IMG/VR virus record: IMGVR_UViG_3300037125_000089
Span: 1 to 53,697 of that record
Reading direction: 5' to 3' (one strand)
DNA length: 53,697 bases
Source of the DNA: a virus
Taxonomy: Duplodnaviria; Caudoviricetes
Position numbers and translations under genes: made by a program. The notes under the pieces were generated by a model that was given only the letters and a program-made list of their open reading frames with translations, had not been told where the DNA came from and ran no database searches. This document shows positions 23,940 through 52,920 of the stretch, piece after piece; the stretch's first letter is position 1; each line of letters starts with the position of its first letter.

Positions 23940-24461
23940 ATGAGACCATCATTTAAGAATTTGTTAAATGCATTAACCGTTTTGTTATTGTTTGGATATT
24001 TATTCGGGCAGGATACAAACAAAGTTGATTGGAATAATTATCAAATAGATCAAACAATGTTTGTAAGGTGGAATTTTACGGCCGATTCCGGAGCAACCAG
24101 AACGGGTAAAGCTTTTCCAATGGTATTTTATGACGGAAATGATTTTTCAACTAATCCCATAGCAGGGTATTATTCCATAACGGCAAGTAATAGCGGAGAG
24201 GCAATCGATTCATTAGAAGGAAAATTGTTATTAGGAGTAAGCTACGGCAACGGGGAATCAGTTAAGATAGATACTGTAATAGTAAAAAGTACTGCAGAAA
24301 ATGATACAACATTGACCGGTAATTTTGAATTTGATCTTGTTAATTCAGACACTGTGAAAGTTAGAGGGGAAAACTATTTCTTCGAATTTATAGCAGAAAC
24401 AAGTAATGTATTAAGCGGTTTTGTAGAGATTGTAATTGATAAACCGGAAAGTAATAGGTAG
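23940..24461 (+). CDS. Signal-peptide-bearing beta-rich protein in the head module
   Basis: GGGGAGG RBS; MRPSFKNLLNALTVLLLFGYLFG|Q. Confidence 0.75.
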   Translation: MRPSFKNLLNALTVLLLFGYLFGQDTNKVDWNNYQIDQTMFVRWNFTADSGATRTGKAFPMVFYDGNDFSTNPIAGYYSITASNSGEAIDSLEGKLLLGVSYGNGESVKIDTVIVKSTAENDTTLTGNFEFDLVNSDTVKVRGENYFFEFIAETSNVLSGFVEIVIDKPESNR

Positions 24462-28539: not shown

Positions 28540-29172
28540 ATGGCTGGTGAACGAAGCAACATATTAGCGGGTAATGTTTATAACAATATTGAAGGGTATG
28601 GAATTAGAAATATTTCCATACCTAATATTTATTCAAAACTTACACAGGCGCAAAATTATATTATCAGTGAAGCAATGCCTATTGAGATATTTGAGGTTAC
28701 GACAGTAAAAGACCATGAAGAATATCTTCTTGAATTTAACGATTCAACAATAGAATTGAAGATCAGAAAAATAATCAATCCTTCAGCATGGAGAGAAAAA
28801 ATAATTACATGTGACCTTAATGAATTTGAAGAATTAAAAAGAGAAAATTTTATTTACAGACAACCGGTAAAAGCAATAATAATTAAAGGTGTGCTGCATT
28901 TAATACCGGCCCCGGGTGAGTCTGATTTGAAAATAAAATTGTATGCAATGTTAACCGGATCAAATATAAATACAAAGATTAATAAAGAAACTGATCCAAT
29001 ATTAAAAACATTTTGGGATGATGCTCTTGAATACTACGCTACAGAAAAATCAGTACCGGTAAAAGAAAGAGCATACTGGAATCAAAAATTTTTAAATGCA
29101 TTAACTGATAATACAGATAAAGGACATAATATACTGCCAATGCCTTCTAAAGACAGCAGGAATTATTGGTAG
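28540..29172 (+). CDS. Probable head-tail adaptor
   Basis: L..AQN.I, T....EEY.L, LHLIPAP, WDDALEYYA pattern; position. Confidence 0.65.
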   Translation: MAGERSNILAGNVYNNIEGYGIRNISIPNIYSKLTQAQNYIISEAMPIEIFEVTTVKDHEEYLLEFNDSTIELKIRKIINPSAWREKIITCDLNEFEELKRENFIYRQPVKAIIIKGVLHLIPAPGESDLKIKLYAMLTGSNINTKINKETDPILKTFWDDALEYYATEKSVPVKERAYWNQKFLNALTDNTDKGHNILPMPSKDSRNYW

Positions 29173-29219
29173 GATAAAGTTACAAGTTTGCAAGTTAACA
29201 AGTTGAAAGAGAATTATTA

Positions 29220-29855
29220 ATGGCTACACCTAAATTTGATAGTATATGTATTGAGTTTATGAGCCGTATTGCAGATAAGTTTGTTTCTTCATTTACTGCA
29301 GGAAGCGGAGATATGCCGGAAGGAATAATACTTGAGAATAAAAAATATATTGAAAGTTATATAAATAAATCGATGTTCATCCTTTTTAACAACTATTGGG
29401 AAGCAGTAAAGGGAGATATACAATTATTTAAACAAATATTTCCTGAATTAATTTCAGTACCTACCGATGTGGTTGAATTTGATTCAGGGAAATATACAAT
29501 TGATAATCCATACAAAAATTTTTTTAGGTTGGTTGGCGCTATTACAGAAGATAAAAAATATATAACCGTGACAGATGTTAATAAATATACAATCCTAATA
29601 AGTGAATTGTATGAAGAAATTGACGCTGATGAATCTAATCCAAGAATTTTTCAAATCGGTGAAAACAAACTTGAAATATTTCCAGATACGATTGAATCAG
29701 CAATTATAATATATCTCAAACAACCGTTAAACCCTGAAGACGGCAGTTTTATTGAACAGAACGGTAATTATGATAGTCCTTTTAATCTACAATGGAATTC
29801 CAAAATAGCTGAAATAGCTGAAAAGTTATATAAAACAGACAGACAAGAGGTATAA
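29220..29855 (+). CDS. Probable adaptor/tail-ring paralogue
   Basis: YINKS...KLEIFP...IIYLKQP...IAEIA pattern. Confidence 0.55.
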   Translation: MATPKFDSICIEFMSRIADKFVSSFTAGSGDMPEGIILENKKYIESYINKSMFILFNNYWEAVKGDIQLFKQIFPELISVPTDVVEFDSGKYTIDNPYKNFFRLVGAITEDKKYITVTDVNKYTILISELYEEIDADESNPRIFQIGENKLEIFPDTIESAIIIYLKQPLNPEDGSFIEQNGNYDSPFNLQWNSKIAEIAEKLYKTDRQEV

Positions 29856-30740
29856 ATGTTAGGAAAAGATTTTACCTTAAAAGAAACAAGGAATATTATT
29901 CTACAATGGGTTAAAGAATTAGACCAAGTGAAAATAGAAAGAAAACTTGTGAATAAATTTATAAATATGGCTGTTACGGACACCGCGGAAATATTAGGAC
30001 TTGCAGAATTAGAACCATATGGTGAGACAGCAATATTAAACAATGTTAATTCATCTGTAAATTCATATTCGGAAGGTGTTGTAACCGAAGCAACATATTC
30101 GAACACAACAAAATCAATAGAAAAATCACCACATTCGTTAACAACGAATCATATAGGAAGAAGAATAGTTTTTTGGAGCACTACATCCAATATAGCCATT
30201 GGCCAAATAGTTTCAATTCCAGATGAAAATAATTTTACTGTAAATATAGCAGTTGGCAGTGATATGAGTTCAGTAAATTATTCTATTTTTAGCGAACATA
30301 GTGTTGACAGCCTTGATATTTCGGATTTAAGAATAAATCAAACTAGGAAATTAACAGATAGTGTAAATGGATTGATATTACCAACTACCGATACCAAATT
30401 TGATAATTTATCAGAATTTGATGAAAAGAGTGATAACATATATTGGTATAGACACGGTGAAAAATTACTTCTTCATAAAGGAGCAAATATTTCAGGTTAC
30501 GGAGAAATTACACTTCATTATTTTAGATATCCATACAGAGCCACAATTGACAGTGACTATTTAGATATAAGAGATCAATTTATACCCGGATTAGTAATTC
30601 CAAAAGTTAAGAATTATGTATTAGAACATTTGGGAATAGAACCCTCAGAAAAATTAATCGAACAAATCAATAGTCGAACTGAAAAGATAAGAAATTTGAA
30701 TATTGCTGAAAAAGCATCATTAAATAAAAAAGAGTCTTAA
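29856..30740 (+). CDS. Probable adaptor/tail-ring paralogue with an inserted beta domain
   Basis: FINMAV...ITLHYFRYP......D.LDI.DQF pattern. Confidence 0.55.
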   Translation: MLGKDFTLKETRNIILQWVKELDQVKIERKLVNKFINMAVTDTAEILGLAELEPYGETAILNNVNSSVNSYSEGVVTEATYSNTTKSIEKSPHSLTTNHIGRRIVFWSTTSNIAIGQIVSIPDENNFTVNIAVGSDMSSVNYSIFSEHSVDSLDISDLRINQTRKLTDSVNGLILPTTDTKFDNLSEFDEKSDNIYWYRHGEKLLLHKGANISGYGEITLHYFRYPYRATIDSDYLDIRDQFIPGLVIPKVKNYVLEHLGIEPSEKLIEQINSRTEKIRNLNIAEKASLNKKES

Positions 30741-30746
30741 ACCATA

Positions 30747-33203
30747 ATGGAAAAATTTACACATACATTTAATAATTTTACCGGTACTGTGAGCAATAAA
30801 AATACTGAAGGAGTAAATGGTTCAAAAAGGATATTAAATTTTGAAATTCATAAAAAACCCGGAGTATTGACATTAAGACCAAAATACATGTTGAAATATG
30901 AAGCCCCTTCGATTAATGATGAGGTTTTATTTGACAGAATAAAAGACTTGGAATATATAACGTTTGAAAATTTTGCCGACAAGAGCATTGAAAACCAGGA
31001 AATGGAAGTTACTTGTGAAATTCAAAAAGGTGAAATTACAGCTTTAGATGGAAGCGGTATAGAGGATACTATACCAACATTGTTATTTTGGATAAGACCA
31101 TATTTTAGAGGTTACTGGATTGATGGTTGGGAATGGTTAAATAAAATTGTTATTACTAAAACTGTAAGTGAACCTGATGAAACATATAAATCAAAAATTG
31201 ATATTTACGGTGAGCTTGGAGATATAAGACAATGGACTGTTTATAATAAAACTAAAGGTAATATTTCTCAAGTAATTGATTATAAAGAAGCCGAAGGCGG
31301 GAATACTACAATTCATCATACATTATTTAATAATAATTGGGAAGATGGCGATATCATCTATCTTTTCAAAAATTATTTTTCATCAGATTTTATGAATTAT
31401 AATTTCATTGCCGATGAATATGAAATAAATTTCCATACTGTTGTAAATGATTTAAGAATTAGTTTCGGTAGTGAGAAATATAGATTAGCTGCAGGAATAG
31501 GGTATAGAAATAAATATTTTAAAGTGAAAGGTTTTGGTTTTAGTGTTCACCCGGATATTGATAATGAAGAAACATTAACAAATTTTTCAAATATATCAAG
31601 AATAATCTTTGATCCATATACACTATATCCGGGAACCGGAGAATACGGATTAAAGCTTGTTAAATTGTCGAACGGGAATTTACCTGCCGGTGATTATCAA
31701 TTTAAACTAATAGGAGTTATAGACAGCTCTAATAAATTATTACTTGCTGAAAATAAAATTACCGTAAGCGGGAGTTATAATATTGCAGTTTATCCTTATG
31801 CAAGACTTGGAAACCACAATAAAAGGATTACTGATTTGGAAGTTTATTTTTCTTCTGACGGTAAAGCATTTTATTTATTTAATAATTATAATATTTCCGA
31901 AACAGAGTTTTCACCAACAGATTATATAATTAATGAAGACGGCCAGTTAATTTTAGAATCTGTCGACTCTATCGAATTATATACAAATGAAGATGCAGCT
32001 AGTAAAGATTCAGAAACAGATTCAGTTGGATTATGGAAAATATGGCGAGGAACATTTTTACCTGGAACAGTTGAAAGTGTAAACGACGGCTATGAAAGTT
32101 CATATTCGATAAAATACACAAACAGAACAATTTTACCATATGAAACAACAGGTATTCAACATGAAGTTTATGATGTAAAAGAATTAACTGACTATACTAT
32201 AACTTTCGATGCAAAATCAGATATTTATAGAACTTTAGAACTGTTTTTTCTCGGAAATTCATATTTTTATGTTGGTCAACCGAAGGTTGTTGTTGATGTA
32301 AAAAATATATGGACTAACATACAAATCACGTTAACAACTCCAAAATTCACAAGTGAAATTTATAAATACCTTGTAATAATTGCTAACGATCTAACTTCAG
32401 ACAGTACCTTTCAAATTGACAATATGTCAATAAAAGAAAAATCCAATTCAATTTTAACAGACGATACTGCAGCGGAGGAATCAATTAAAAGCAGACTAGG
32501 TTATACACCTACAAAAAATATAGTGTCAAGCTGGGATCAAGCATTAATATTAAACGGGAAAACATTTCTCGTAAATCCTGTAATAGATGAGGAAAGATTT
32601 ATAAACTATATTTTCAGATCGCATATATCATCAGATTCAGTTATGTATGATGTGATTACTTCACAGAATCGAATTAATTTGGAAAAGTTTGACGGTGATT
32701 TCTTAGTAGGAGTATTTAAAACAAATGAAAAAGATTTAGCAATTTTAAAAAATAACAGTGTTACCATAATTGATCCTGAAACAGGATACGAAAGGTTATC
32801 AGATAAAACTATAGGCTGCATTTCTAAAGCAAGTATTCAAAATAATTTTTGGTGTGATAAACAAGATGCTTTTGGAATAATCAACGGAACTATAACTAAT
32901 TTAACCGAAGATACAATACGCGATAAGTTAAATAATTCTGAAGAAAAGGAAAAGATATATTCAGTAATCGATAGGTACGGAACTTATAGAATACGATTGT
33001 ATGATATCAATACCGAATGGATTTACACAAAATTAGGATGGATAGAGCAAAGTAAGGATATTTTTCCGAAAATTTATAGGGAAGGCGTGGGAAGAATTGT
33101 TTGGTTTATGGATGAGGAAGGTAATATTTATTCTGAACCGGAAACAATAGAAGAAATAATTGGATACGGAACAAAGTATGGTGCAGCTAATCAAGAGTTT
33201 TAG
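30747..33203 (+). CDS. Probable tail nozzle / stabilisation protein (P22 gp10-like) with CBM-like insertion
   Basis: N-terminal F.NFTG...LNFEI..KPGVL.LRP; beta-propeller-like C-terminus (IGCISKASI); position in the tail module. Confidence 0.6.
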   Translation: MEKFTHTFNNFTGTVSNKNTEGVNGSKRILNFEIHKKPGVLTLRPKYMLKYEAPSINDEVLFDRIKDLEYITFENFADKSIENQEMEVTCEIQKGEITALDGSGIEDTIPTLLFWIRPYFRGYWIDGWEWLNKIVITKTVSEPDETYKSKIDIYGELGDIRQWTVYNKTKGNISQVIDYKEAEGGNTTIHHTLFNNNWEDGDIIYLFKNYFSSDFMNYNFIADEYEINFHTVVNDLRISFGSEKYRLAAGIGYRNKYFKVKGFGFSVHPDIDNEETLTNFSNISRIIFDPYTLYPGTGEYGLKLVKLSNGNLPAGDYQFKLIGVIDSSNKLLLAENKITVSGSYNIAVYPYARLGNHNKRITDLEVYFSSDGKAFYLFNNYNISETEFSPTDYIINEDGQLILESVDSIELYTNEDAASKDSETDSVGLWKIWRGTFLPGTVESVNDGYESSYSIKYTNRTILPYETTGIQHEVYDVKELTDYTITFDAKSDIYRTLELFFLGNSYFYVGQPKVVVDVKNIWTNIQITLTTPKFTSEIYKYLVIIANDLTSDSTFQIDNMSIKEKSNSILTDDTAAEESIKSRLGYTPTKNIVSSWDQALILNGKTFLVNPVIDEERFINYIFRSHISSDSVMYDVITSQNRINLEKFDGDFLVGVFKTNEKDLAILKNNSVTIIDPETGYERLSDKTIGCISKASIQNNFWCDKQDAFGIINGTITNLTEDTIRDKLNNSEEKEKIYSVIDRYGTYRIRLYDINTEWIYTKLGWIEQSKDIFPKIYREGVGRIVWFMDEEGNIYSEPETIEEIIGYGTKYGAANQEF

Positions 33204-33259
33204 TTTGAGATGGGGAGAAACGTAGAATAGGAGATTTGAATTTATAAAATGGGGGTGAA

Positions 33260-33766
33260 ATGAAATTATTCTATTTTTTTATTTTAATAATACTAATACC
33301 ACAGTTTTTAACAGCGCAGTTTGCAAAACCCAAAAGCTTAACTAAACACTACGAACTTAGAAAGTATGAACAAGACGTTAGAGTAAATGCAGTTGAATTA
33401 AATGATGATAAAGATAAGCTTGATTCGCTGATACATGCTTTAACAGCGCAAACTGATCCCAAACAATTACAATTTATTGAATGTAAAGATACTTCTATTG
33501 TAGTAGACACTACATTACTGCTTTTGTCATTATCAGATAATATGAGCGGCCAAGGACAATTTACAGGAACTTCTGAAATTGACAGTGTTGGTATTGCCGC
33601 ATTAGATAGCTTGGATATTGTACTTGCAACACCATATACAGAAAGTGTAAATGTTAATGACTATTTAAGTGTTTATATCAAGGGGAATTATTTATACGTT
33701 AGAAGACCAGCAGGCGGCACAACAGACCTTAAGTATAATTGGATTTGGATAAGGAAATATCAATGA
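33260..33766 (+). CDS. Signal-peptide-bearing tail-fibre-like protein
   Basis: MKLFYFFILIILIPQFLTA|Q followed by LTKHYELRK...ELNDDKDKLDSLI, resembling a tail-fibre N-terminal anchor. Confidence 0.65.
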   Translation: MKLFYFFILIILIPQFLTAQFAKPKSLTKHYELRKYEQDVRVNAVELNDDKDKLDSLIHALTAQTDPKQLQFIECKDTSIVVDTTLLLLSLSDNMSGQGQFTGTSEIDSVGIAALDSLDIVLATPYTESVNVNDYLSVYIKGNYLYVRRPAGGTTDLKYNWIWIRKYQ

Positions 33767-36561
33767 GAATTAAAGCAATAATTTATTTAATTCTACTAAT
33801 AATAAATTTTACAATGGCTCAAATCTCTGAACCTAATTGGATAAGATTGCACAGAGAAAATCTTCTTGGAAGTGGCGGTAAAATCCAAAGTGATTGGTTA
33901 TTTCATCTTGACACGCTTCATATTTTGGGCTTAAGTGCTAATACAAATAGTGTTATTCATCCAAAATATAAGCTTACAAATAGTAACATATTTTGGAGAA
34001 ATTTATGGAAAATTGATTCAACACATTTGTTTGTAACGGAAAATTTGTTTGGACTTAATCAACCTAGTCTAGGAGAATGGACTACAAATGAAAGTGTATC
34101 TAGGCATTCATTGTTATCAGCTGATAAAAAAACATGGGGATCAATATGTGAGGTGAAAAAAGATAGCTTAGTGTATATATGGTTAGTTGATAATGATATT
34201 GATCACAAAATTCTAGGATATAATGAAAATGGTGTTTTTTCTTGGACCGAGTATACAAACTTATCATCTGAATTTATGGGACAAATGGATAAAAGTACAT
34301 GTTCACGAGCGTTTGCATATAGAGATTCTTTTTTCATTAGAACCATGCATGGAGGAGTTGCTTATAACCCTAGCATTCGATCCTGGACAGCTCAAGGTTT
34401 TGCTGTATATAATTATGAAGTAGGTGCTATTAATTCTAATATAGTTTTATTTGGGGATAATGATACCACTCTTTATTCTGAATCTGGATCAAATGGTACA
34501 ATACTCAATAACGATTGGTTATTAGAGGTAGACTCTTTAAATGATAAGTATTATATATGGGCATGGCAAGTTGATATAGGATCGTCTGTAGATTATGATA
34601 GTATAACTGTTTTATATGAAATCAATTCAACGGCTTTAGATTCAATAGTATATAATAATGGTAATAGAATATATGGTTTCCAAGAAGTATGGAGAGATAT
34701 TGAATCGTTAGGTTACCCCTATAAAATGTGGAATAGAGATGGATACTTATGGTGTGCAATAGCAAATGATGTTGATCATAATGTTAATTTATTAAAATGG
34801 GATGGGATTACCATGGAAATTGTTGATTTGCCTGAATCCCATATTGATAGCGCTGAAGTTGTAGGAGTATATCCTTATGATTCGAATAATATAATTATGA
34901 CAATCCAAGATTATGATCACATTGAAAGTATTGATTCGATACATTTTGGCTATCAATTTAAACCAAATGTTTCAAGTGTTGATACTTTTTTACTTCCAAC
35001 TGCAGAACTGGGATTGATGAATACTATTGACTATTATAATGGAAATTTATTTGTTGGATACACAACTTATCCAACAGGTTATATTAATGATGCTCCCGAC
35101 GGGAATGATTATGATGCTAAAACCGAAAGTATGTTTTATGCAAAATTTGATTTTGGAATAATATCTTTATTACAGCCACAAAATGAAAAAGCATATATTC
35201 CAGGTGATACTATTAATATATCATGGTTAGCTTCACAGGATACAATTGAAATATTGATTTTAGGTGATACAATTACAGTATCCGGTACTGAATATAATTA
35301 TGAGGTACCTGATACAAGCGGGACTTTTATTTTGACTGCAAGGTTAAAAAATCTACCGGGACAATTTGATTACAGAACATTTATAGTAAAATCTAATATA
35401 TTTTTGGAAGTAGTAACAAACGTAGACGCGGATAAATTAACAATTGTAAATGAAGTTTCGAAAACGATAAATATTTCTCTATTATCAAATGGTGTTGATT
35501 CTGTAAGATTTTATTGGTCAGAAGATACTACAGGCGGAGTTTGGAATTTATTAGAAGGTTCATATTCAATAACAGATGATAGCGGGATAGATACATCGGT
35601 AATTGAGTGGTCAGTAAAGGGAATTCCCAAAGTTGAAGATAGTTTATTTGTTAAAGTAGAACAGATTGCAGATACAAATATTCATAGTTTAAAACCACCA
35701 AAATCTGGTGTAATAGTTGAAGCAGGACATACCGGAATAGACAAAAGAGTTTGTTGGGGTTCAGTAAATGATAATTTACCATATTCCCAAAATTGGTGTT
35801 TAGATTTATGTTGTAAATGGTGTACTGTGAACTGGTATAAAGGAAGTTTTAGATTAAATTCTGGCAATTCAGTTGGAAATATAATTGGTAAACTTCCAGC
35901 TACAGTGTCAGAATATAAAACAAATCAAAAGAAATGTTCGGAACTATGGGCTGGTGATAGTGACGCTAATAAATATTATTATATTGACGAAAGCCAAAAT
36001 GTTATTAAAACACAGATAGAAAGGGAAGTAGCTTTGAGATCTTTGGGGATTTATAAAAATGGCAATTTTACATGGAATGGTTATTCATGGTATGTGTCGG
36101 GTAATGCTTTATATGTTGATGATTTGGTCAATGGTGTTGATAGCCTTATTGTTTTCAATTTTGAAGCTTATACTGACGATGCTGGAGGTTATGGTTATAA
36201 ACATTTTCTAGGAGATGTATCGGTTGCTTTTTTGATATTTGATGATCAAGATATAGGTAGTCAGACAAAACCAAATCCTTTTAGACCAGATGGAAGTTTA
36301 ATCCCATTAACAGAGGATGAAATGAAGAGTTATATTGATACTCTTGCAAATCAGGGTGAACAAGTAAAATTTATTACAATTTTATATGGTCGTGGTTTTC
36401 CAGGCGATGCTATTCTTATAGTTGATGTAGATTTTGTAGGAAATGCCCATGATAAAAGTTCAATTTCAGTTTCAGATTCATTTGTACTAACATCAGGTAC
36501 AGTGACTCGCACAATATTTAGAGGTTATATTCCTCAAAAGATATTGGAGTTAAGAAATTAA
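33763..36561 (+). CDS. Large signal-peptide-bearing beta-rich protein (candidate receptor-binding/appendage protein)
   Basis: ATG 33763 overlaps the upstream stop (ATGA); MRIKAIIYLILLIINFTMA|Q; Ig-like segment P.NE.....GDTINISW; Cys cluster CLDLCCKWC. Confidence 0.7.
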   Translation: MRIKAIIYLILLIINFTMAQISEPNWIRLHRENLLGSGGKIQSDWLFHLDTLHILGLSANTNSVIHPKYKLTNSNIFWRNLWKIDSTHLFVTENLFGLNQPSLGEWTTNESVSRHSLLSADKKTWGSICEVKKDSLVYIWLVDNDIDHKILGYNENGVFSWTEYTNLSSEFMGQMDKSTCSRAFAYRDSFFIRTMHGGVAYNPSIRSWTAQGFAVYNYEVGAINSNIVLFGDNDTTLYSESGSNGTILNNDWLLEVDSLNDKYYIWAWQVDIGSSVDYDSITVLYEINSTALDSIVYNNGNRIYGFQEVWRDIESLGYPYKMWNRDGYLWCAIANDVDHNVNLLKWDGITMEIVDLPESHIDSAEVVGVYPYDSNNIIMTIQDYDHIESIDSIHFGYQFKPNVSSVDTFLLPTAELGLMNTIDYYNGNLFVGYTTYPTGYINDAPDGNDYDAKTESMFYAKFDFGIISLLQPQNEKAYIPGDTINISWLASQDTIEILILGDTITVSGTEYNYEVPDTSGTFILTARLKNLPGQFDYRTFIVKSNIFLEVVTNVDADKLTIVNEVSKTINISLLSNGVDSVRFYWSEDTTGGVWNLLEGSYSITDDSGIDTSVIEWSVKGIPKVEDSLFVKVEQIADTNIHSLKPPKSGVIVEAGHTGIDKRVCWGSVNDNLPYSQNWCLDLCCKWCTVNWYKGSFRLNSGNSVGNIIGKLPATVSEYKTNQKKCSELWAGDSDANKYYYIDESQNVIKTQIEREVALRSLGIYKNGNFTWNGYSWYVSGNALYVDDLVNGVDSLIVFNFEAYTDDAGGYGYKHFLGDVSVAFLIFDDQDIGSQTKPNPFRPDGSLIPLTEDEMKSYIDTLANQGEQVKFITILYGRGFPGDAILIVDVDFVGNAHDKSSISVSDSFVLTSGTVTRTIFRGYIPQKILELRN

Positions 36562-36926
36562 TGGCAGAGAATGAAAGCAGTATCAGTGTTGCATACGAAA
36601 CGCTTCCGATTTTATTTAAAGGAAATAAGAGAGGTCTGCTTCAATATATTTCAGTTACAGAATATAAATCAAGCGTTGATCTAAATTTTACTATTCATTT
36701 TAGACCATTTGACAACGGTTATTATATAGAAAAAACCTATACTTTACCAAAATCATTAGAATTCGAAGATGAGAATTATTTAACAAAAGATTTTTTTCAA
36801 ATGCTGCCACCGGGATTTTTAGTTAAAGAGTATTATGTAAGTATAACCGGTAACGTGAACGGATATATAGAAATAAAAGATTTTTTAGTAGAAGGAGAAA
36901 TAATTAGTACGGGCAGATATGGCTAA
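36561..36926 (+). CDS. Probable tail protein, resembling the C-terminal domain of a nozzle protein
   Basis: ISVAYET...KR....ISV.EYKS beta-sandwich pattern; TAATG overlap. Confidence 0.5.
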   Translation: MAENESSISVAYETLPILFKGNKRGLLQYISVTEYKSSVDLNFTIHFRPFDNGYYIEKTYTLPKSLEFEDENYLTKDFFQMLPPGFLVKEYYVSITGNVNGYIEIKDFLVEGEIISTGRYG

Positions 36927-37182
36927 AATTAAAAGAAAAATTACAATATCTGATAATCAAATTGAACAAGAAATTGATAATATTACAAGACAAGTAGAAA
37001 ATATGTTTTCAAGTAAACTCTCAAGAGTTGATAAGTTGCCTGATATTAATTCAATAAACGAAATGGATGAATTTCTTTTGTTACAGAACGAAAATTATTT
37101 GAGAATAATAAGAATAGAAGATAATTGGTTTCAACAAAAAGTAGACGAAAACAATATTGTTTACTATGAAGTATATTCTTAG
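36919..37182 (+). CDS. Hypothetical virion-module protein
   Basis: Overlaps the end of the upstream ORF. Confidence 0.65.
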   Translation: MAKIKRKITISDNQIEQEIDNITRQVENMFSSKLSRVDKLPDINSINEMDEFLLLQNENYLRIIRIEDNWFQQKVDENNIVYYEVYS

Positions 37183-37191
37183 GAGGATAAT

Positions 37192-37761
37192 ATGCCACTG
37201 AATCCAGCAGGTCCATTAAATGATGCTTTTGACGCAGCTTATGGTTTAAATGCAATAGTTGGAAATAGATTTGATGATTTTAAATTTGATTTTGATTACA
37301 ACAACATGAATGATGTTCTCAAAAGCATTTATGGAAATCAAACCAATTTGATAACTCGAAAAGCGAATAAATCGATTGACGATGCTAATAAATCTGCTAT
37401 TTCAAGGTTGGCTTCCAGCGGAATTACAGACGGAGCAATTCTTGAAGATACTATTGCCGGTAACACATATGATATAGGCGAAAGTTTATTTGATTCATTA
37501 GAAAGCCTAACTACATCTCAAGCAAGTGATACTATAGATTTAATGAATCAAGAAAATCAAAATAAATATCTAACTACTAAAGCCGCTCAAGATGTAGATT
37601 TTCAAAATATAACCAATCAAATCAATAAGATAAGAACTTTATTATCATCTGCATCAGTACTTGAGAACAAAAAATTAGCAGCAGGAAACCAAACGGGAAT
37701 TTGGGATGATATTTTATCAACAATACAATCCGGTTCGAATGTAGCTTCGTTATTCGTATAA
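37192..37761 (+). CDS. Probable internal virion (ejection) protein
   Basis: AGGAGG RBS; helical, SRLASSGI...G motif; first of three genes of increasing size ending in the giant gene. Confidence 0.6.
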   Translation: MPLNPAGPLNDAFDAAYGLNAIVGNRFDDFKFDFDYNNMNDVLKSIYGNQTNLITRKANKSIDDANKSAISRLASSGITDGAILEDTIAGNTYDIGESLFDSLESLTTSQASDTIDLMNQENQNKYLTTKAAQDVDFQNITNQINKIRTLLSSASVLENKKLAAGNQTGIWDDILSTIQSGSNVASLFV

Positions 37762-37799
37762 ACATTTTGAAAATTATTATAATAAAAATCGGTTAAAAT

Positions 37800-38963
37800 A
37801 TGGGCGATTGGGCTAAAGCTTGGATGAGACAAGGTCCTGGAGTTACAGAATCAATAAGATATCTTAAATATCTACAAGACCAAGCAAATAAAAAAGAAAA
37901 CACAAAAAAGTTGAATGATTTGTTTTCTTCAAGTTTGGGGAATATTAATAGAATAAACCAAAGTATAAATAATCCTACTGAAGAAATAACTACTGAAGGA
38001 TTTAGTGATTATGTTTTAGGTGATATTCAAACAACGGCTCAAAAGAATACTGCAGGAACAAATGAAACTATAAACTTTCTTCAAAAAGCTTTACAAGTTG
38101 AAAATCCAGATATAAATCAAGCCGGAAGTATGTTTGATATTCTCAATAAATTTGTTACACCAATTTCTTCTCAAAGACAAAAAACTCAAAAGGACCCTTA
38201 TAAAGCCGGAAAATATATTTATGGAAGAAAAGATGATGATTCAATTGATTTTAGTAAACCAATCCATACAATTGAAGAAAGTGATGATATAAAAGACCCG
38301 TATAGGTTTTCGGATTATGTCTTCGGCAGGGATGAAGATGGTAATGTAGATTTTTCAAATATTCTATTCAAAGCACCGGATAAAACAGAAGATGAAGAAT
38401 ACCCGGATATTTCTACAGATTTAGGAACGTTACAGCAGGGTATTAAAATAGTTAAAGATATTAAGAAAACACCTTTTGTAAAATACAGCAAAACTGATCC
38501 TAGGTTTGAAAACTATCCATCAGAAGAAACGTCTGGTGAACAATTATTGGAGGAAATTGAATATTTACGCGATAAAGGTTTATCCGATGAAGAAATATTT
38601 GCAAAAAAAGGGTTAGGTAATGTATTTAACACACTTGATGAAATATCCGACACAGAAGATATTATTCAAATTCCCGAATACGGCGGTGCATATTTTTTAA
38701 ATGACGGAAGTAAAACAAAGGGATATTTTACACAAGAATCTTTCGACAAATATAAAGAAAGTGTTAAAAACAAGTATGTTGATACAGCTAATAAAATTAT
38801 TTACAAAACCGGATTACAGGATGCTGTTGAAATTATTCGCGAACAATTAAAAAAAGGAAGACCGCTTGATAAAGTTTTAGAAGCATTTATGAAAGGTGAT
38901 TCTTCACTTACTAAGGACGATGCAGATGTATTACGAGCATATTTTAGGTTAATGAGTTTGTAA
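37800..38963 (+). CDS. Probable internal virion (ejection) protein
   Basis: Position before the giant gene; internal KDPY repeat. Confidence 0.6.
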   Translation: MGDWAKAWMRQGPGVTESIRYLKYLQDQANKKENTKKLNDLFSSSLGNINRINQSINNPTEEITTEGFSDYVLGDIQTTAQKNTAGTNETINFLQKALQVENPDINQAGSMFDILNKFVTPISSQRQKTQKDPYKAGKYIYGRKDDDSIDFSKPIHTIEESDDIKDPYRFSDYVFGRDEDGNVDFSNILFKAPDKTEDEEYPDISTDLGTLQQGIKIVKDIKKTPFVKYSKTDPRFENYPSEETSGEQLLEEIEYLRDKGLSDEEIFAKKGLGNVFNTLDEISDTEDIIQIPEYGGAYFLNDGSKTKGYFTQESFDKYKESVKNKYVDTANKIIYKTGLQDAVEIIREQLKKGRPLDKVLEAFMKGDSSLTKDDADVLRAYFRLMSL

Positions 38964-38983: not shown

Positions 38984-41900
38984 TTGACAAGTTACTTGAA
39001 AAGAAGAAAATTCAAACAAATAGATTTTGATAAGTATTTCTCGCAGGAGATAGTTGATAGTAGTTCCTCCTTTGATAAATCTGTAGATGTAATGAATGCA
39101 CCTCCTGAAGATGATTTTTTTTTATCGACTATAAATAACCTTCATTCAAAAAAAAAAGATGACCGCCAAAGAATTAAGTTAAAAGATAAAGAAGAAAAGC
39201 TATTCCAAGAATTTTGGAAATCTAACCCTAATGTTCAGGCATGGAAAAAGAATTTAGGCAATCTAAATAAATCTCCAGATGATGAACTTGATAAATATGA
39301 CTATAGAAAAGCATGGCAAGCCGGCGATGAACCTCAAATAAATCCTGTTGATAATCTTTATCATTGGGGGAGTATAGGAAAAGATGAAGATCATCCAACT
39401 GCTTGGAAGCAGAAATATTTTGAACAGACAGGTTTAAACCCGGATGAGTTGTTATTTAATAAAAACAAAAACATTAAACCACCGTTATTTGATACGGCTA
39501 TTCAAGAAACAACAAAACAGCCGGCATTATTAGCTGATGATATTACCGAACCAAGAAAGCCTTTTCAACCTTCTATTCAACAACATGAATTAAACAGAAT
39601 ACCTGAAGATGATATTGTTAATAATATCAATTTAATCGACAAGCAGTTGCCAATCTTAAAAGCACAGTTTGAAAAGGCTGATGAAATTAATAAATCTGAA
39701 TTAGCACAAAAGTATAATTCTTTGATAGATCAAAGAAATAAGCTTGTTGAAAATTATTATAAAATATTTCCCGGGCAAAAATATTTGGCCAAAGGTGTTT
39801 TGGAAGCTGTTAATCTTCAAAATATAATTAGCCCTCTTAAACAGATACAACGAACGCCAAAACCTTTAACCGCAAATGAAGAGTACATTCCTAAAAAAAG
39901 TAGTTTAGAAATAATACCAAAAGGTAAAGACCCATTATTTGGTTTGGAATATAAGGGTTTACGAATTCCGCTAAATACCCCGGGCGGAAGGTTAATATCA
40001 TCATTTGTACAAGGCGCCGCAGCAATACCGGAAGGTGTATTCGGCGCTGCAGAGTATTTGGGGGACCAGTTTAATTTCAAAGATGTTAAAGGTGTATCAC
40101 GGAAAACCGCAAAAAATATTAATAGATGGGTAAGGAGTATTGCACCGGAGAATCCTAATTTTGTAGAGGAACTAGCATCAGGAGCCGGTTCGATGGCAAT
40201 ATTTTTACCGTTTGGAATAGGCGCATCAACAGTAGGCCGTTTGTTGGGAAGTACTCCTAAGATAGCTAATCTGTTTGGTGTAGGAGCTGCAACATTTCTT
40301 GAATCAGCTACAGAAGCTGGCCAGGTATATAACGAAAGTAAAAGTGAAGCAGCAGCAGAGAAAACATTTCTTGCAAATATGGTTTTAATAGGCGTGACTA
40401 ATAAGTTCGGTATTTTTGCAGACAGGGTACCTGGATTAAAGAAAATGCTGCTATCTACGCCTTTGGAAGGACTACAGGAAGCCGGCCAGGAAATAATACA
40501 GGCAAAAGCACAAGGAAAAGAACCGGATTGGAACAATGTAATTAAAAGCGCTCAAATAGGTACTATTATAGGCGGCGGTGCAAGTTTTGTGGATACTTCC
40601 ACAAGAGAAAAACCAATTGATGATATACGTGGTAAGAAAATTCCTATTGAATTTGATCCAAAACTTAATGAGGAAATAAATCAAAGAATTGAGGGTTTTG
40701 GTTTAACACCGGAAACAGGACTAAATCAATATGTATTGGATTTGTTATCACCAAAGGAAGCTCAAATAGATATAACTCCGGATAAGTTAACAGATGAGGT
40801 GTTTGGTAAACAAGATAAAAGTGAAAAGGTAAAAGTAAAAAGTAATGAACAAAAAAGAAAAGAAGTTGATGTTGAAGATTTTGTAAGAAAAGCAAACCGG
40901 TTTCAAACTGAAGATATTCCGGGATTAACGGCTGATTTTGATTTGAAGAATATCCACCAGCCAATCGGCAAGACTGGTGAATCCGGGACCAGGAAGTCGG
41001 AAGCAGAAAAGATTTTGGAAAAGGGTAAAGATGTAGAATACAAGAAAATACCGAATATGTTTACACCGGCTCAAGGCGAAACGATATTTAATGAGAACGG
41101 GCAATGGTATAGAGTATATGAATCAGGTACCAGTGCAGAAATGTATGTTCCACCGGAAGAACTTGATGTTAAAATGAAAATAAGTCCAAAAGAAGCTTAT
41201 GATTCATTCAATTTTATGAATAAAAATCTTGCCAAACTTGATTTATTCTTGTCTTCAAAACAAAATGAAAATATTAAAGAAAAAGAACCGAAATCATATT
41301 TGGAAATGCCAAGTTATGAAGATTTTTTAAAAATGTCAGTTGGTGATGTACAGGATTTTGAATTGAATAGATATGAAGAAATGCAATCAAAATTGCAACC
41401 AATTGATGAAAGGATTAAAAATGAAAAAGAAAATCTGAATAATTATAAGGGTAGAAGCAAAGTTAATCAAGGTAAAAGAAAAAAAATTAAAAGTAATATT
41501 AATGAATTAAATGAACAGAAATCCAAAATAAAAGATGAATATGAAAGTAAAGCATTAAATTTTTCATTGGAACTTAGAGAAAGAATATCAGAAAAAGCCA
41601 TAGAGGAAAAAGTTGATTTACCTGAAGATGAAATCTATCAATTGGTAGATGATGTTCTGGTTGCATTGGATCCCCGTTATGGTAAATCTGATTTAACAGT
41701 AGATGAATTAATTTCTGATACGATTGCAGATTATAAGGAGAAAGAAGATAGTAGAAAGAAGACAGATTCAAGTGATAAGTTAAAAGATAGAACTATAGAA
41801 AAACCATCTAAACAAACATTCGAAGAATCTATCCCTTCTCAAAAAACAATTATTGAACAAATAACCGATGAAACAAATGGTAGATATGAAATTGATATTG

Positions 41901-44900
41901 TTGACGGTAAATATAAAGCTATAGATCAAGCATCGGGTAACCCGGTTAGTATTGGAGGAAATGTAACGGATTCCGATGAGTTAATAAAAATACTTAAGGC
42001 TCATGCAAAAAGAAATCCTGAAGCAAACTATGGTTTAAAAAAAGTAGAAGAAAGTGAAGATAGGAGTTCCTCCTTCGATAAATCTACGGCGGAAAGGAAA
42101 GAGACTGATGAAGAAAAGCCTTCAGATGTTGAAGCTTCGGAGGTTATTAATGTTGATGAGATTGAACCTAATGAAAGTATTGATATAGATAAACTTGAAT
42201 CTGAAATAGCTTATAATAAGGGAGTTGTTAAAGAATTAGAATCAAAAATCAAGAATCAAGAATTAAGAAAAACTAATGCTGATGATTTTATTAAAAAAGA
42301 ATATGAAAATATTAAGAATCGAGGAATTTTAACCGATGTAGATAAAATTTCAAATAGAATTTTTAAGAAATCTAAAAAGCAGTATCCAGATAAATCTAAA
42401 GACTATATAAAAATATTTGTTATTGAACAGGAAATTCAAAACGTTAAAAGCCGATCTAAACGGGGGAAGTTGAAAAAGCAACTTCAAGAATTAAGAAGTT
42501 CCTCAGAAAAAGGTGATGAAGGATTAACTACTACTTTTACTCCAGCACAATATTTGAGTGATGTTCCGACACCTAACATAATAAAGGAAGCTACTGCAAA
42601 ATTAGGCGGAATAGATAAATTACAGGAAGCATTTGAAAAAGCTAATAATGATGAGCTGGCAAATTTAGAAAAGGAAAAAGGAACATTGTTAGAATCTTTT
42701 GCACGTCATTATCTTGCAGAGGAAGCTGTGAAAAATATAAAGATTGAAGAAAAGGGAAGTGTTTCAGACATATCAAAGAATTTTAATAAACAGTTGGATG
42801 AATATGTATCCGGTAAGTTAAGAAGCGATGTTATTTTTAATCTTGGAAAACCTTCGAAAGTGCTAAAAAAAACGGGAGTCCCGAATTTAGAAATTTCTTT
42901 AACTCAAAAGGTAATAAAAACCAAAACAGGAAAGCATAATTATCCGGTAGAATCGCTAAAAGATTTACCCGATAGAATAAATGATCCGATAATGGTATTT
43001 CCGTCAAAAACGCAACCAAATTCTAAGGTTGTTCTTACCGGAATAAAATATAAGAACCGCAATTTTGTTGTAGCTTTAAAATTAGATGAGACAGCTTATA
43101 GAGGTAGAAAAGCAATACAGGTAAATGATATAAAAAGTATTTATCCAAAGGATTTTGAAAAAATTATTAACTGGATAAAGGAAGGGAATGTAGATTATGT
43201 AAATAAAAAGAAAGGTCTCAAATGGTTTGAGGACTCAGCGGGCTCCAATTACCCGCAGCGTCAAACCATTCAAAACCTTATTTCGAATATAGCAGATAAA
43301 TTCGAAAAGTCAAGCGGAAAAGATGTTGGGAAGAAAGAGGGTGCGCAAGAAAAAAAAGATTTGCAAGTTACTGAAAAAAGTTTAAGTTTACATAATGAGG
43401 AACAAAGTGATGAAACTAAGTCAAGAAATATCAAAGAAGATACCGACAGAGGACAAGAATTACCTCATGAAAGTTCTGAATCAGGGGGAATATCTGGAAC
43501 TGATAACGAAGGAAAACAGGTTGACAAAGGAAGAAAAGTTGATCAGAAAGAAGTTGATAAAGGTTTACGAAAATCTGAATCAGACATTGAGCGAAGTAGC
43601 AGCACATCTAAATTACCCACCGCAACCAAGTCAGTGGAAGGACAGTCAACCGTTAGTAGAGATGCTGGAGATATTTCCGAACCTTCACAAAAGTCTATGG
43701 TATCAGAATCAACTGAGCCAGGTGACAGGGATGTAGGTGTAAGGGAGTCCTCCTACGCCAAGGCTTCGGAGGATGCTAATTATGATTTACGCAATAAAGA
43801 ACCTATAAGACTTACCAAAAGCCAACGCAGAAAGATAAACGAAAAAGTACGCGAAATTCTTCAATCAAAAAAGGCAGGTGAATTATCTGATGAAGACCGC
43901 GAAATTTTACGTCAATACACCGGTGAAGGAGGTTTATCATCCGGGGAAGGTAAAGGCGCCCTTAACCAGCATTACACAGATTACCCTGTAATTAAATCAA
44001 TTTTTGACGCACTTGATAAGTCAGGATTTGATTATAAAAATGTATTAGAACCGGCAGCGGGTTCCGGTAATTTTGTAGGAATGAAACCGGATAAAAATTG
44101 GACTACGGTAGATATTGATAAAACCAACCATGATGTAACTAAATATTTATACCCGAAAGGAACACATTATAATTTATCTTATGAGCAGTTTAAAGATACC
44201 GGTTATGATTTAGTTATTTCTAATGTACCTTTTAGCGAGGAAAGAGGCGCCGGTAAATTAAATATTAGACCGGATATTAAAGCACTTCATGATTTTTATT
44301 TTATCCATTCATTGGACCGTGTAAAACCAAACGGTTTGATTGTTTTTATTACTTCAAAGGGTACAATGGATAAGGTTAATCAGCAGATTAGAAATGAAAT
44401 ATTAAGTAAGGCCGACTTTATAACAGCATACCGTTTACCAGGAGGTACATTCGAAAAGAACGCACATACAGATGTAATAACCGATATAATTGTGCTGCAG
44501 AAAAGACCGGAAGGATATGAAACTAAAAATGCCGATAAGAATTATATGTTTTCTCAATCCGATAAAGTACTATTTGTAGATGGTGGATTTGTAGGATCAA
44601 ATGACGGGGTGTTTGTTAATATGTTTTATCAGAATTTTCCTGAGAAGATATTAGGCAAACCGGAAATGGGTAAAAATAAGTTATACGGCGGGAAGCTTAA
44701 TCTTAATGTTACGGGTGAACCGGATTTATCAAAGATTAAAATTGAATATGAGCCTTACCGGTTAAAAGAAAAGGAGAAAGGGAGAAAAGGAGAGATTGAA
44801 AAATATTCACGAACTGAGAAGATACCCGATAGGATGCAGGAATTTGAATCGTGGGCAAGTGAAAACGGAACTAAATACAGGATAAGCAGTGATCCGCGGT

Positions 44901-51965: not shown

Positions 51966-52349
51966 ATGTGTGAATTAACTCCTAAAGGTTATAAAATGAA
52001 GGACGGAACCATTATTGGATGGGATACAAACCTAGAGGATATTTCACAACATCATTTTCAAGAATTACAAGAAGCAGGTTTATGGGAATCATTTATAAAT
52101 AGGAGAAATTTTCATTCGATAAGAAATGAGATGAAGAATTTGTTTTCTTCTATACAAGACTCATTAACGGATATAAGAGATAACATGAATAAATTTTTAA
52201 CTGCTGATGAAATTGATTCAAAAATAGAAAAAGCGATTGATAAAGCACCCAGTGAACATATTAGCAAAATAGCAACATTAATTAAAAATTTAGCAATAAT
52301 TCTAGGCACTGTTAGCGGGTGGATATATGTTTTAATTCAAAATCAATAG
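51966..52349 (+). CDS. Coiled-coil protein with one C-terminal TM helix (holin-like)
   Basis: LAIILGTVSGWIYVLI at the C-terminus; lysis-region position. Confidence 0.6.
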   Translation: MCELTPKGYKMKDGTIIGWDTNLEDISQHHFQELQEAGLWESFINRRNFHSIRNEMKNLFSSIQDSLTDIRDNMNKFLTADEIDSKIEKAIDKAPSEHISKIATLIKNLAIILGTVSGWIYVLIQNQ

Positions 52350-52402
52350 ATAAATTATCTTTCTTTTAAAAGAAACACATCACAAATCAAAGGGCCAACA
52401 TT

Positions 52403-52531
52403 ATGATAAAAAAAATTTTTTTCCCATTTCTGATTATTCTATTCCTGTTTATCCTTTCTACAAATTTCAGTGCATCAATCAATGGGGGGAATGATGTACG
52501 AGGAAGACCGTTATTACTACTAAGGTCTTAA
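52403..52531 (+). CDS. 42-aa putative secreted peptide (not in the ORF track)
   Basis: MIKKIFFPFLIILFLFILSTNFSASINGGNDVRGRPLLLLRS; same CAAAGGGCCAA-N4-ATG context as the ASCH gene; motif shared with the protein at 14996. Confidence 0.75.
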   Translation: MIKKIFFPFLIILFLFILSTNFSASINGGNDVRGRPLLLLRS

Positions 52532-52575
52532 AAACGAAAAAAATAAATAAACGTTAATAACAAAAGGAGAATAGT

Positions 52576-52920
52576 ATGGACACCTTAACAAAGGTAAATG
52601 AAGTTTTAAAAGGTTCGATACAGGGCACAAATGAGCTTGGTGATTTAGTTGACTTTGTATATGAATCTTTTGAAGAACTACAAGACGGATTTCAAATCAC
52701 GGATGGCATAGATTTAATAAATGCTGTCATTAAAGCTGTAAGCGGTAGTAAAGAAGCGGCGGCGCAAGTTTTTGATTTACAAGATAGTGAAATAAACGAG
52801 CTTGTAGAAAGAAGTGATAATTTCACGTTAGGTGAGCTTGCCAATGAAGCACGCCAGATAGTGAAATTTATTTTAACAGGATTTCAAACCTATTCTGTAT
52901 TTGCCGGTAAACTTGGTTAA
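52576..52920 (+). CDS. Hypothetical acidic helical protein in the lysis module
   Basis: AGGAG RBS; DGFQITD motif. Confidence 0.75.
   Translation: MDTLTKVNEVLKGSIQGTNELGDLVDFVYESFEELQDGFQITDGIDLINAVIKAVSGSKEAAAQVFDLQDSEINELVERSDNFTLGELANEARQIVKFILTGFQTYSVFAGKLG

Follow-up and report, generated by a model that had tools for sequence, protein, structure and literature searches.

Two coupled genes, here called SP1 and SP2, lie on the plus strand in the tail module of a prophage that has a P22-type portal and resides in a Bacteroidota-type bacterium, within the 53,697 nt analysed here (IMG/VR record IMGVR_UViG_3300037125_000089; hereafter the window). SP1 extends from 33260 to 33766, starts with an ATG at 33260 that is directly preceded by the SD-like sequence GGGGGTGAA, ends with a stop codon at 33764-33766 and encodes 168 aa. 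The ATG of SP2 at 33763 overlaps this stop codon (ATGA). From there the reading frame runs to 36561 and encodes 932 aa; the mechanically called ORF, starting with the TTG at 33739, has 940 aa. The TAA of SP2 in turn overlaps the ATG of the following gene (TAATG), which is translationally coupled to it, encodes 121 aa (36561..36926, plus strand) and had no family match in Pfam and PHROG scans. Directly upstream of SP1, an 818-aa tail protein is encoded (30747..33203, plus strand) that is nozzle-like by size and position only and had no match in Pfam, PHROG or NCBIfam. The GC content of SP1 and SP2 is 0.31, matching the rest of the module, and the pair is located about 15 kb upstream of lysis-like genes at 51966-53697. 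A preliminary description of this DNA had placed adaptors at 28540-30740; their sole basis is a sub-threshold SU10_adaptor match at 29856-30740 (E 0.016; 16.1 bits, cut-off 27). Its statement that no other fibre gene is present held in Pfam and PHROG scans of the 54 window proteins, which are low in power because this phage is so divergent.

Both proteins begin with a predicted signal peptide of 19 residues. In SP1 (33260..33316, plus strand) MK is followed by LFYFFILIILIPQFL and TA, with predicted cleavage between LTA and Q, and in SP2 (33763..33819, plus strand) MRIK is followed by AIIYLILLIINF and TMA, with predicted cleavage between TMA and Q. The coupled ORFs and their N-termini are exactly as quoted in the preliminary description. 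Both leaders show the Sec/signal peptidase I (SPI) pattern of a short basic n-region, an uncharged h-region of about 10-15 residues, a small residue at -1 and a tolerated residue at -3. A hydrophobicity scan of the contig C4 ORFs found such N-termini in three plus-strand genes of the window, namely SP1, SP2 and the gene at 14996-16057. Neither leader has a lipobox Cys as read from the sequence, and neither protein matched Por_Secre_tail or any other Pfam or NCBIfam family at E 0.1 or better; at least 150 Por_Secre_tail (T9SS) domains occur elsewhere in the host. We rejected SAR-type anchors, as the h-regions read as strongly hydrophobic and not Gly/Ala-rich, T9SS cargo, given the missing C-terminal Por_Secre_tail domain, and a spanin pair, given the missing lipobox, the size of SP2 and the wrong position.

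Two reports (Bochtler et al. 2018, PMC5837995; PMC10653852) describe, in their available text, Q-rule substrates of the Bacteroidetes Sec/SPI pathway, which have a leader that ends in a small residue (-1) and is followed by Gln (+1). SP1 and SP2 share these features, and the host genome obeys the rule: Gln follows candidate cleavage sites at 21.4% compared with a background of 2.7% (938 leader-like ORFs), a 7.9-fold enrichment. The substrates presented in that text are cellular periplasmic, outer-membrane or secreted proteins, whereas SP1 and SP2 belong to a phage structural operon. No plant-type glutaminyl cyclase (PF05096) turned up in the host genome, which is irrelevant to the rule because a second enzyme lineage exists, according to PMC5837995. 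A survey of homologues for signal-peptide retention found the leader kept and followed by Q in 12 of 12 SP1 relatives with complete N-termini and in all 14 members of the SP2 family (seven proteins plus those of L031, L032, L034, L041, L042, L043 and L046). Q20 of SP2, the +1 residue, is invariant in 13/13 full-length relatives and represents one of six fully invariant columns. The leaders, host-style and conserved in every relative found, thus look genuine at the level of sequence.

The SP1 relatives in alignment A6 (13 sequences) are 28-44% identical to the window protein, and their similarity is unevenly distributed. Residues 20-51 (33317..33412, plus strand), a candidate tail-docking segment, show identities of 0.51-0.60 within backbone groups and of 0.17-0.35 between them, compared with 0.37-0.45 between groups for the remainder. 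This conserved body, residues 52-168 (33413..33763, plus strand), contains a DSL..AL helix motif, a beta-rich C-terminal part and the tail LKYNWIWIRKYQ. The type of this N-terminal module, which comprises the first 32 mature residues, goes with the homology group of the tail gene upstream. In prophage G041 the SP1 relative has 423 aa, carries a leader followed by Q and is similar to annotated tail fibres from 20 phage records, with E values of 9e-21 for Roseobacter phage CRP-6, 3e-12 for Pseudomonas phage Rollin and 5e-8 for Flavobacterium phage immuto. The fibre-like N-terminus ascribed to SP1 in the preliminary description is part of a conserved module that in G041 is joined to a domain with homology to annotated tail fibres. 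The pairwise similarity of SP1 to the G041 protein is weak (E 0.12), and it is the multiple alignment that links them. In the window, SP1 itself lacks the domain that the long relative has in common with CRP-6 gp61 and the Rollin and immuto fibres, and gave no match, and CRP-6 gp61 and the immuto fibre, the two that were translated, have neither a leader nor the motif enrichment described below. In the Atlas, SP1 has small viral clusters as neighbours, one of which bears the name 'tail fiber protein family'; the scores of 0.83-0.88 lie below the reliability bars.

SP2 is variable at its N-terminus and conserved at its C-terminus, the reverse of most fibres. According to the alignments, residues 20-465 (33820..35157, plus strand) are swapped for unrelated N-terminal modules in relatives. 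This region is possibly a beta-propeller: its Atlas neighbours are propeller-like, at TM values of only 0.25-0.37 and with a poor model, and AF2 did not fold it (pLDDT <30). Residues 466-640 (35158..35682, plus strand) comprise Ig-like beta-sandwich repeats, the sole part that reached an AF2 pLDDT of 50-75. In the phylum sample, 20 other genomes have large host ORFs with partial matches to these repeats, and the Ig-like region of the L031 relative gave a Big_7 match. Residues 641-932 (35683..36558, plus strand) form the conserved C-terminal domain with a terminal FRG motif; identity to P0003 is 45% over residues 466-921. W686, R920 and G921 are present in 13/13 relatives, and C664 and C684 in 12/13. 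The 'Cys cluster' of the preliminary description thus reduces to this one conserved pair. The AF2 models of full-length SP2 (7 sequences, pLDDT 39.2) and of its C-terminal 313 residues (10 sequences, pLDDT 45.2) are unusable, so no fold supports a fibre.

At least three phage backbones with no relation to each other have the SP1-SP2 cassette in their fibre slot. These are the window itself, the group of G041, L031 and L034, which share capsid proteins at 66-67% identity that are not related to that of the window, and a Baseplate_J-bearing type represented by contigs of 129-133 kb (Pfam 1.4e-16; PHROG baseplate wedge 9.3e-44). In the window, G041, L031, L034, L040 and L044 the cassette comes after a large distal tail protein; the 830-869 aa proteins found there in G041, L031 and L034 are equivalent in position to the 818-aa protein and have no BLASTP similarity to it. 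In L032/L033 and L041 it comes after Baseplate_J plus a 684-aa protein. Leaderless fibre-like genes flank it in the baseplate-type contigs, so it need not be the only receptor binder there. The cassette is present in viral-collection contigs as well as in prophages, and of 166 genomes from the family of the host only 2 contain full-length copies, in each case within a phage structural module. By their synteny in several backbones the genes lie in the tail-fibre slot, and the pair is a conserved cassette and no local peculiarity.

Both proteins are enriched in the motif D(S/T)(A/I/L/V/M/T), which we took from the available text of PMC8550257 as the Bacteroidota O-glycosylation motif. SP2 contains 17 instances of D[ST][AILVMT] compared with 4.2 expected, a number reached by 0/300 shuffles, and SP1 contains 4 compared with 0.8 expected (p 0.003). 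This 4-5-fold excess exceeds the 99th percentile of the host and is also seen in all relatives, with sites at conserved columns that include four conserved positions in SP1. No enrichment is seen in the third leader protein of the window or in the 506-aa and 90-aa leader proteins of G041; gp091-094 of Cellulophaga phage phi10:1 lack it as well, unlike SP1 and SP2, and the observed/expected ratio over host exported proteins is 0.95. As these comparison sets are unenriched, the excess may be a structural trait of the SP1 and SP2 families; possibly, the sites are glycosylated by the host.

Similarity of SP1 or SP2 to known fibres was not detectable in Pfam, PHROG, NCBIfam or tblastn searches against isolated phages. 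The tblastn searches also returned nothing for the portal, the small protein of L034 and the 480-aa leader protein of L031, and for the SP2 relative of L032 they gave one weak match in an unannotated Bacillus phage record. Word-indexed protein searches returned only SP1 and SP2 themselves, pattern scans with single proteins or with alignment A2 yielded no loci, and a PDB sequence search gave nothing below E 0.16. One metatranscriptome run shares 10% of the sampled words of 30000-38000, which is uninformative on expression or habitat.

In phi10:1 the consecutive genes gp091-gp094, at the distal end of the tail module of a phage with a Bacteroidota host, are annotated 'structural protein, experimental MS/MS proteomics' (GenBank KC821618). 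All four products have a leader, a small residue and then Q, and so has the adjoining pectate lyase gp095. However, proteins may also co-purify with particles. With a capsid annotated by pfam05065, phi10:1 differs in backbone from the window and its P22-type portal, and BLASTP and HMM comparisons found no homology between gp091-095 and SP1 or SP2; a homology to gp087-095 was likewise rejected. A literature search found no text discussing the leaders of gp091-gp094. By analogy, the annotation of leader-bearing proteins as virion proteins makes an attachment of SP1 and SP2 to the virion plausible. The nearest report found, by Matrishin et al. (2023, PMC10367356), describes in its available text Q-rule genes in Porphyromonas gingivalis prophages, where predicted cleavage exposes Gln, which the authors take for an adaptation to Sec/SPI export in the host. 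There, the genes have an unknown function and may modify the host outer membrane, and a conserved fibre-slot cassette is not part of the text available. Full-text searching found no paper describing exported tail fibres; subscription journals and supplements may hold more. Among the crAss001 fibres gp21-26, leaders were found in 0/6.

In textbook tailed phages every part of the virion is built in the cytoplasm. P22 tailspikes and T4 fibres fold there and have no signal peptide, and they attach late, as the last components of otherwise complete particles, in a step for which they are competent in vitro. By analogy with this late attachment, addition of a fibre after a membrane breach is mechanically conceivable.

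Our main reading, to which we assign a probability of about one in two, is that SP1 and SP2 are parts of a fibre that are exported and become attached to the particle at lysis. The host secretion signal on both proteins in the fibre slot suggests that host-recognition parts of this phage probably mature outside the cytoplasm, where the particles are built. The preliminary description had proposed exported appendages, and its proposal gains from the host-style leaders, the fibre slot and the SP1 module. Periplasmic maturation is the best-fitting reading, and joining the virion at lysis is plausible in view of phi10:1. As late phage proteins, SP1 and SP2 would be exported by the host Sec machinery and cut by signal peptidase I before the invariant Gln, and would be retained in the periplasm because they carry no T9SS or lipoprotein signal. 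Maturation there would give pyroglutamate N-termini, one or more disulfides in SP2 and, possibly, O-glycans of the host. The two proteins would form a mobile host-recognition cassette of the tail-fibre type, in which SP1 would act as a small adaptor whose mature N-terminus fits a particular tail and whose body is common to the phages. SP2, which may bind to it, would be large and modular, with an exchangeable N-terminal domain for binding, Ig-like segments as spacers and the conserved C-terminal domain. Until lysis breaches the inner membrane, both would be kept apart from the fibre-less particles built in the cytoplasm, and their attachment would be the last assembly step. We hold more tentatively the wider idea that a group of Bacteroidota phages sends its fibre through Sec, to be folded in the periplasm with pyroglutamate, disulfides and host O-glycans and to be mounted at lysis.

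The main rival reading, which we consider less likely, is that SP1 and SP2 are exported but never borne on the virion and function in the producing cell's envelope at a late stage of infection. They could mask or destroy the receptor, which would keep progeny from being lost on debris and, as with T5 Llp, block superinfection, or loosen the envelope or surface polymers for release. Export is well supported, and proteins with neither a T9SS tail nor a lipobox should remain in the periplasm; this places surface receptors out of their reach, a point against this rival. The N-terminal modules of the SP2 family, lectin-like, propeller-like or beta-helix-like in what is partly a reading of the sequence, would suit glycan binding or cleavage, and neither protein resembles known virion proteins. 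T5 Llp, a lipoprotein, and lambda Lom, an outer-membrane protein, are exported and encoded beside tail or receptor-binding genes; both are small and, unlike SP1 and SP2, they are not known to be conserved as coupled pairs across backbones or to track a tail gene. The available text of PMC10367356 takes the Q-rule proteins of P. gingivalis phages as envelope modifiers. However, without any docking to the tail there would be little reason for the SP1 N-terminus to track the upstream tail gene. A true fibre domain in the G041 relative of SP1, the lack of another recognisable receptor binder in the window prophage and the leader-bearing phi10:1 proteins annotated as virion components by MS/MS argue against a role confined to the envelope as well.

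The preliminary description had offered receptor-blocking morons as its alternative, and the moron part of this is disfavoured. We consider it improbable that the pair is expressed from the prophage and gives the host a periplasmic or surface adhesin or a glycan-binding function by lysogenic conversion. The prophage context and the Ig-like repeats common to SP2 and large host ORFs would fit this idea, and the Bdellovibrio MAT fibres, in the text available on them, show bacterial use of signal-peptide-bearing proteins that resemble phage fibres. Yet no promoter or terminator belonging to the pair itself was found: no Bacteroidetes-type promoter was seen upstream, and neither promoter-like sites (79 compared with 74 in shuffles) nor terminator-like sites (5 compared with 4.9), both about as common as in the shuffles, flank it. 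Its overlaps with the neighbouring genes, its matching GC content, its persistence across unrelated backbones and in viral-collection contigs, and the confinement of the few full-length copies in the host's family to phage structural modules argue against it further. Least probable of all is that the hydrophobic N-termini are not cleaved, either as inner-membrane anchors that hold fibre parts for assembly or as an artefact of start choice in an AT-rich genome, in which I, L, F, K and N codons are favoured. An internal ATG at residue 18 of SP2 could yield a leaderless protein, and in the SP1 relative of L039 the residue at -1 is P, an unfavourable one for signal peptidase I. However, M is found at position 18 in 0/12 other full-length SP2 relatives, all of which keep the hydrophobic stretch, and the DNA of SP1 offers no other in-frame ATG, GTG or TTG in roughly the first 60 codons, which speaks against starts downstream of the hydrophobic segments. 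A small residue and then Q close the hydrophobic stretch in 25/26 family members, the host marks its exported proteins by the same Q-rule, and only three plus-strand genes of the window have such N-termini.

If SP1 and SP2 are indeed fibre parts that pass through the periplasm, some tailed phages would use a two-compartment assembly pathway. This would offer fibres a route to disulfides, to blocked N-termini and perhaps to glycans made by the host, and a phage could then wear glycans of its host. The prediction of receptor-binding proteins of Bacteroidota phages would have to change, because annotators discard leader-bearing proteins as non-structural, and the production of such proteins for host-range work would be affected. 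Phage phi10:1 is a cultured system in which the idea of exported fibres is directly testable.

The two coupled genes of the tail module, SP1 (33260-33766, + strand, 168 aa) and SP2 (33763-36561, + strand, 932 aa), were checked in the DNA, and their reading frames and N-termini were identical to those from which the preliminary description had claimed signal peptides on tail-fibre-like proteins. An SD-like sequence, GGGGGTGAA, precedes the SP1 ATG, and by inspection of the DNA no other in-frame start is present over approximately the first 60 codons. The SP1 stop overlaps the SP2 ATG (ATGA) and the SP2 TAA overlaps the ATG of the next gene (TAATG). Promoter-like and terminator-like sites were not more frequent than in shuffled sequences and none brackets the pair; the Bacteroidetes-type promoter pattern TTTG...TAnnTTTG occurs 8 times in the window against 4.9 expected, with no instance upstream of SP1. 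The GC content of both genes is that of the adjoining genes. Because of the start/stop overlaps, the absence of a bracketing promoter or terminator and the matching GC content, the SP1/SP2 pair belongs to the late operon.

The window corresponds to G000:C4:42946-96642, inside a 6.76 Mb bacterial genome of 98.5% completeness, in which it forms a low-GC island (0.30-0.33 vs. 0.354 genome-wide). To the left are early-type genes and a 422-aa minus-strand ORF that is an integrase candidate by position only, to the right host-like transporter genes, and the long genes of the window are all on the + strand. Family scans recognized a replication O-like protein and three DNA methyltransferases, the small and large terminase subunits, a P22-type portal (Pfam 1.2e-44, PHROG 6e-51), the major capsid protein and a sub-threshold SU10-adaptor match (29856-30740). 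An 818-aa tail protein (30747-33203) is encoded directly before the pair and four small proteins after it. The gene at 38984-51910 (+) encodes a polyvalent protein of 4308 aa, probably packaged and injected, in which MuF_C, SNF2 helicase and DarB-like antirestriction regions and a methyltransferase-like one were matched; its counterpart at the equivalent position in the related prophage genome G041 has 2136 aa, without a Pfam match. At 51966-52349 (+) follows a 127-aa protein with a hydrophobic segment at the C-terminus, besides SP2 the only window protein resembling the G041 prophage by BLASTP (2.8e-20). The last ORF (53083-53697, +, 204 aa) contains a motif that we take to be typical of lytic transglycosylases. 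Together these two genes look like a lysis region, and neither obtained a family match in the scans.

Cleavage is predicted at LTA↓Q in SP1 and at TMA↓Q in SP2. PMC5837995 and PMC10653852 describe a Bacteroidetes Q-rule, according to which a Gln exposed by signal peptidase I is cyclised to pyroglutamate. Among 938 ORFs of the host genome with a leader-like N-terminus, Q made up 21.4% after candidate cleavage sites vs. 2.7% in the background, a 7.9-fold excess. On contig C4, a hydrophobicity scan assigned such an N-terminus to three + strand genes of the window: SP1, SP2 and the gene at 14996-16057 (+). The latter encodes a third protein with a leader followed by Q (IIS↓Q), of 353 aa with several Cys, which is located among the early genes, distant from the tail module, and gave only noise in family scans.

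Word-indexed protein searches with SP1 and SP2 returned self-matches only, and an exhaustive HMMER scan yielded six SP2 relatives (E 9e-117 to 1.3e-6). Further relatives were identified by genome and contig searches in G041, in three types of viral contigs and in metagenome contigs; membership in the SP2 family was confirmed by HMM or BLASTP. Full-length relatives are rare (2 of 401 genomes in the phylum sample, 2 of 166 in the family), and the remaining genome matches cover only the Ig-like part, within large host ORFs. The SP1 family comprises 13 aligned members with 28-44% identity to the SP1 of the window, plus a long form in G041. The survey of homologues for signal-peptide retention that had been proposed in the preliminary description found it throughout: a hydrophobic leader, then A/G/S, then Q begins 14/14 verified SP2-family proteins, and leader and Q are likewise found in 12/12 SP1 relatives with complete N-termini (A/G/S at −1 in 11, P in the one from contig L039; two others are cut by contig ends). 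Fragments located 3′ of SP1 relatives on L039, L040 and L044 also begin with leader and Q, at a length insufficient for placement in the SP2 family. Export and cleavage of SP1 and SP2 are predicted with high confidence, and it is very improbable that the hydrophobic segments are uncleaved anchors or artefacts of start assignment.

Among 13 aligned full-length SP2 members, six columns are fully invariant (Q20, P472, D536, W686, R920 and G921), while C664 and C684 are kept in 12 of the 13. The relatives have exchanged the N-terminal half and retained the Ig-like repeats and the C-terminal domain. By sequence inspection these exchanged modules resemble propellers, lectins or beta-helices, with weak Atlas support. 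Module swapping is usual in receptor binders, though the polarity of SP2 is opposite to the usual one. AF2 models were poor, with a pLDDT of 39.2 for full SP2 and 45.2 for its C-terminal part. SP2 ends (window ~36500-36558) in a conserved tail of basic and aromatic residues, which reads IFRGYIPQKIL in the window and [YF]FRG[IV]HPKIWKYG in the majority of its relatives; the C-terminal end of SP1, LKYNWIWIRKYQ, resembles it. This tail could serve an SP1-SP2 or tail contact, or it could bind to membrane or LPS.

The pair occurs as a cassette, at the position of the tail fibres, on unrelated phage backbones. The portal, capsid and tail proteins of the window had no BLASTP relation to those of the other loci. 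In the group of G041, L031 and L034, capsids are 66-67% identical and the tail proteins of 830-869 aa 34-36%. In the group of L032 and L033 (contigs of 129-133 kb), L041 and L042, the pair is located 3′ of a 684-aa protein and a Baseplate_J protein (Pfam 1.4e-16; PHROG 'baseplate wedge subunit' 9.3e-44). At all loci but L043, the gene for the small leader protein comes immediately before that for the large one, and L041 and L042 have two small paralogues each. On L043, a single metagenome contig, a Cys-rich 209-aa ORF (L043:424-1053) intervenes, which may be a homing-endonuclease-like insertion. Mature residues 1-32 of SP1 share an identity of 0.51-0.60 within a backbone group vs. 0.17-0.35 between groups, compared to 0.37-0.45 between groups for the remainder, and loci whose upstream tail genes are homologous share the N-terminal type. 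This is the pattern expected of a tail-docking end.

SP1 and SP2 had no match in Pfam, PHROGs, NCBIfam, PDB sequences or isolated phages. The 423-aa protein at the SP1 position of G041 shares an N-terminal module with SP1 in the alignment (pairwise E only 0.12), and the domain that follows has matches among the annotated tail fibres of 20 phage records, including CRP-6 gp61 (9e-21), Rollin (3e-12), a 'cerebellin-1 domain' protein (3e-13) and Flavobacterium phage immuto (5e-8). In translation, the CRP-6 gp61 and immuto fibres are without a leader, unlike SP1 and SP2. The earlier remark that the window has no other obvious fibre gene was upheld, as none was recognized among 54 window proteins in Pfam and PHROG scans, which have low power in such a divergent phage; inspection of the prophage arm to the left revealed no fibre or spike. 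A fibre-type role of the pair in host recognition is rather probable. Between the giant protein and lysis-like genes of G041, three further proteins with leader and Q are encoded (G041:C14:120184-122345; L023:184-2345, −; 121, 506 and 90 aa), and in the 506-aa protein a Laminin_G_3 domain (2.3e-21) was recognized, along with a match to a PHROG annotated 'virion structural protein' (3.8e-19).

SP1 and SP2 have neither a lipobox, by sequence inspection, nor a T9SS C-terminal domain in Pfam and NCBIfam, of which the host has at least 150, so that the mature proteins should remain periplasmic until the envelope fails. Both would mature and be retained in the periplasm and would attach to fibre-less particles after the inner membrane is breached, a chain of events to which we assign, as a whole, a probability of about 0.5. 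Late attachment is feasible, as P22 tailspikes and T4 fibres attach late in vitro. In the cultured Cellulophaga phage phi10:1 (GenBank KC821618), gp091-gp094 are annotated 'structural protein; annotation based on experimental MS/MS proteomics analysis', and all four have leaders ending in SA↓Q, FG↓Q, SA↓Q and NA↓Q, respectively, as has the pectate lyase gp095 (leader and Q); they are alike in this respect to SP1 and SP2 but not homologous.

The main rival is that the pair is exported late to work in the envelope, without ever becoming part of the particle, which we consider possible but less likely. The fibres and spikes gp21-gp26 of crAss001 have a leader in 0/6 cases, unlike SP1 and SP2, and the full-text literature searched contained no description of exported tail fibres. 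For phages of P. gingivalis, PMC10367356 reports five Q-rule genes of unassigned function and proposes outer-membrane modification. That SP1 and SP2 are morons is improbable, and the 353-aa leader protein among the early genes is a better candidate for a moron or for superinfection exclusion.

The general O-glycosylation motif of Bacteroidota is given as D(S/T)(A/I/L/V/M/T) in PMC8550257. It occurs 17 times in SP2 vs. 4.2 expected from composition (0/300 shuffles reach 17) and 4 times in SP1 vs. 0.8 (p 0.003), an excess that may be a further sign of a periplasmic location. The SP2 density of 1.82/100 aa is above the 99th percentile of host proteins of at least 500 aa (1.13-1.22). Every relative has an excess (1.9-4.8/100 aa in the SP1 and 1.2-2.5/100 aa in the SP2 family), in conserved columns. 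In G041, L031 and L033 it is confined to the leader-bearing proteins of the pair; the 121-aa leader protein of G041 has a weaker excess (p 0.03), and portals, capsids and large tail proteins have none; a leaderless 933-aa fibre-like protein has 0 motifs vs. 3.6 expected. Among 34 window proteins tested, one other reached that level, a 173-aa protein (23940-24461, +; 4 vs. 0.66, 0/300 shuffles). It has no leader and is encoded between the portal gene and a 405-aa gene upstream of the capsid gene, hence motif enrichment can arise without export. Host exported proteins as a class (observed/expected 0.95), the third leader protein of the window (0 vs. 1.45 expected), the 506-aa and 90-aa leader proteins of G041, the 480-aa one of L031 and phi10:1 gp091-094 were not enriched. 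This speaks against glycosylation as the explanation, and a fold trait of the SP1 and SP2 families may account for the excess.

3′ of the fibre block of L032 and L033, several ORFs have glycosyltransferase-like starts by inspection (L033:13642-20852). If these glycosyltransferases are real, the phage may carry its own glycosylation genes beside motif-rich exported fibres.
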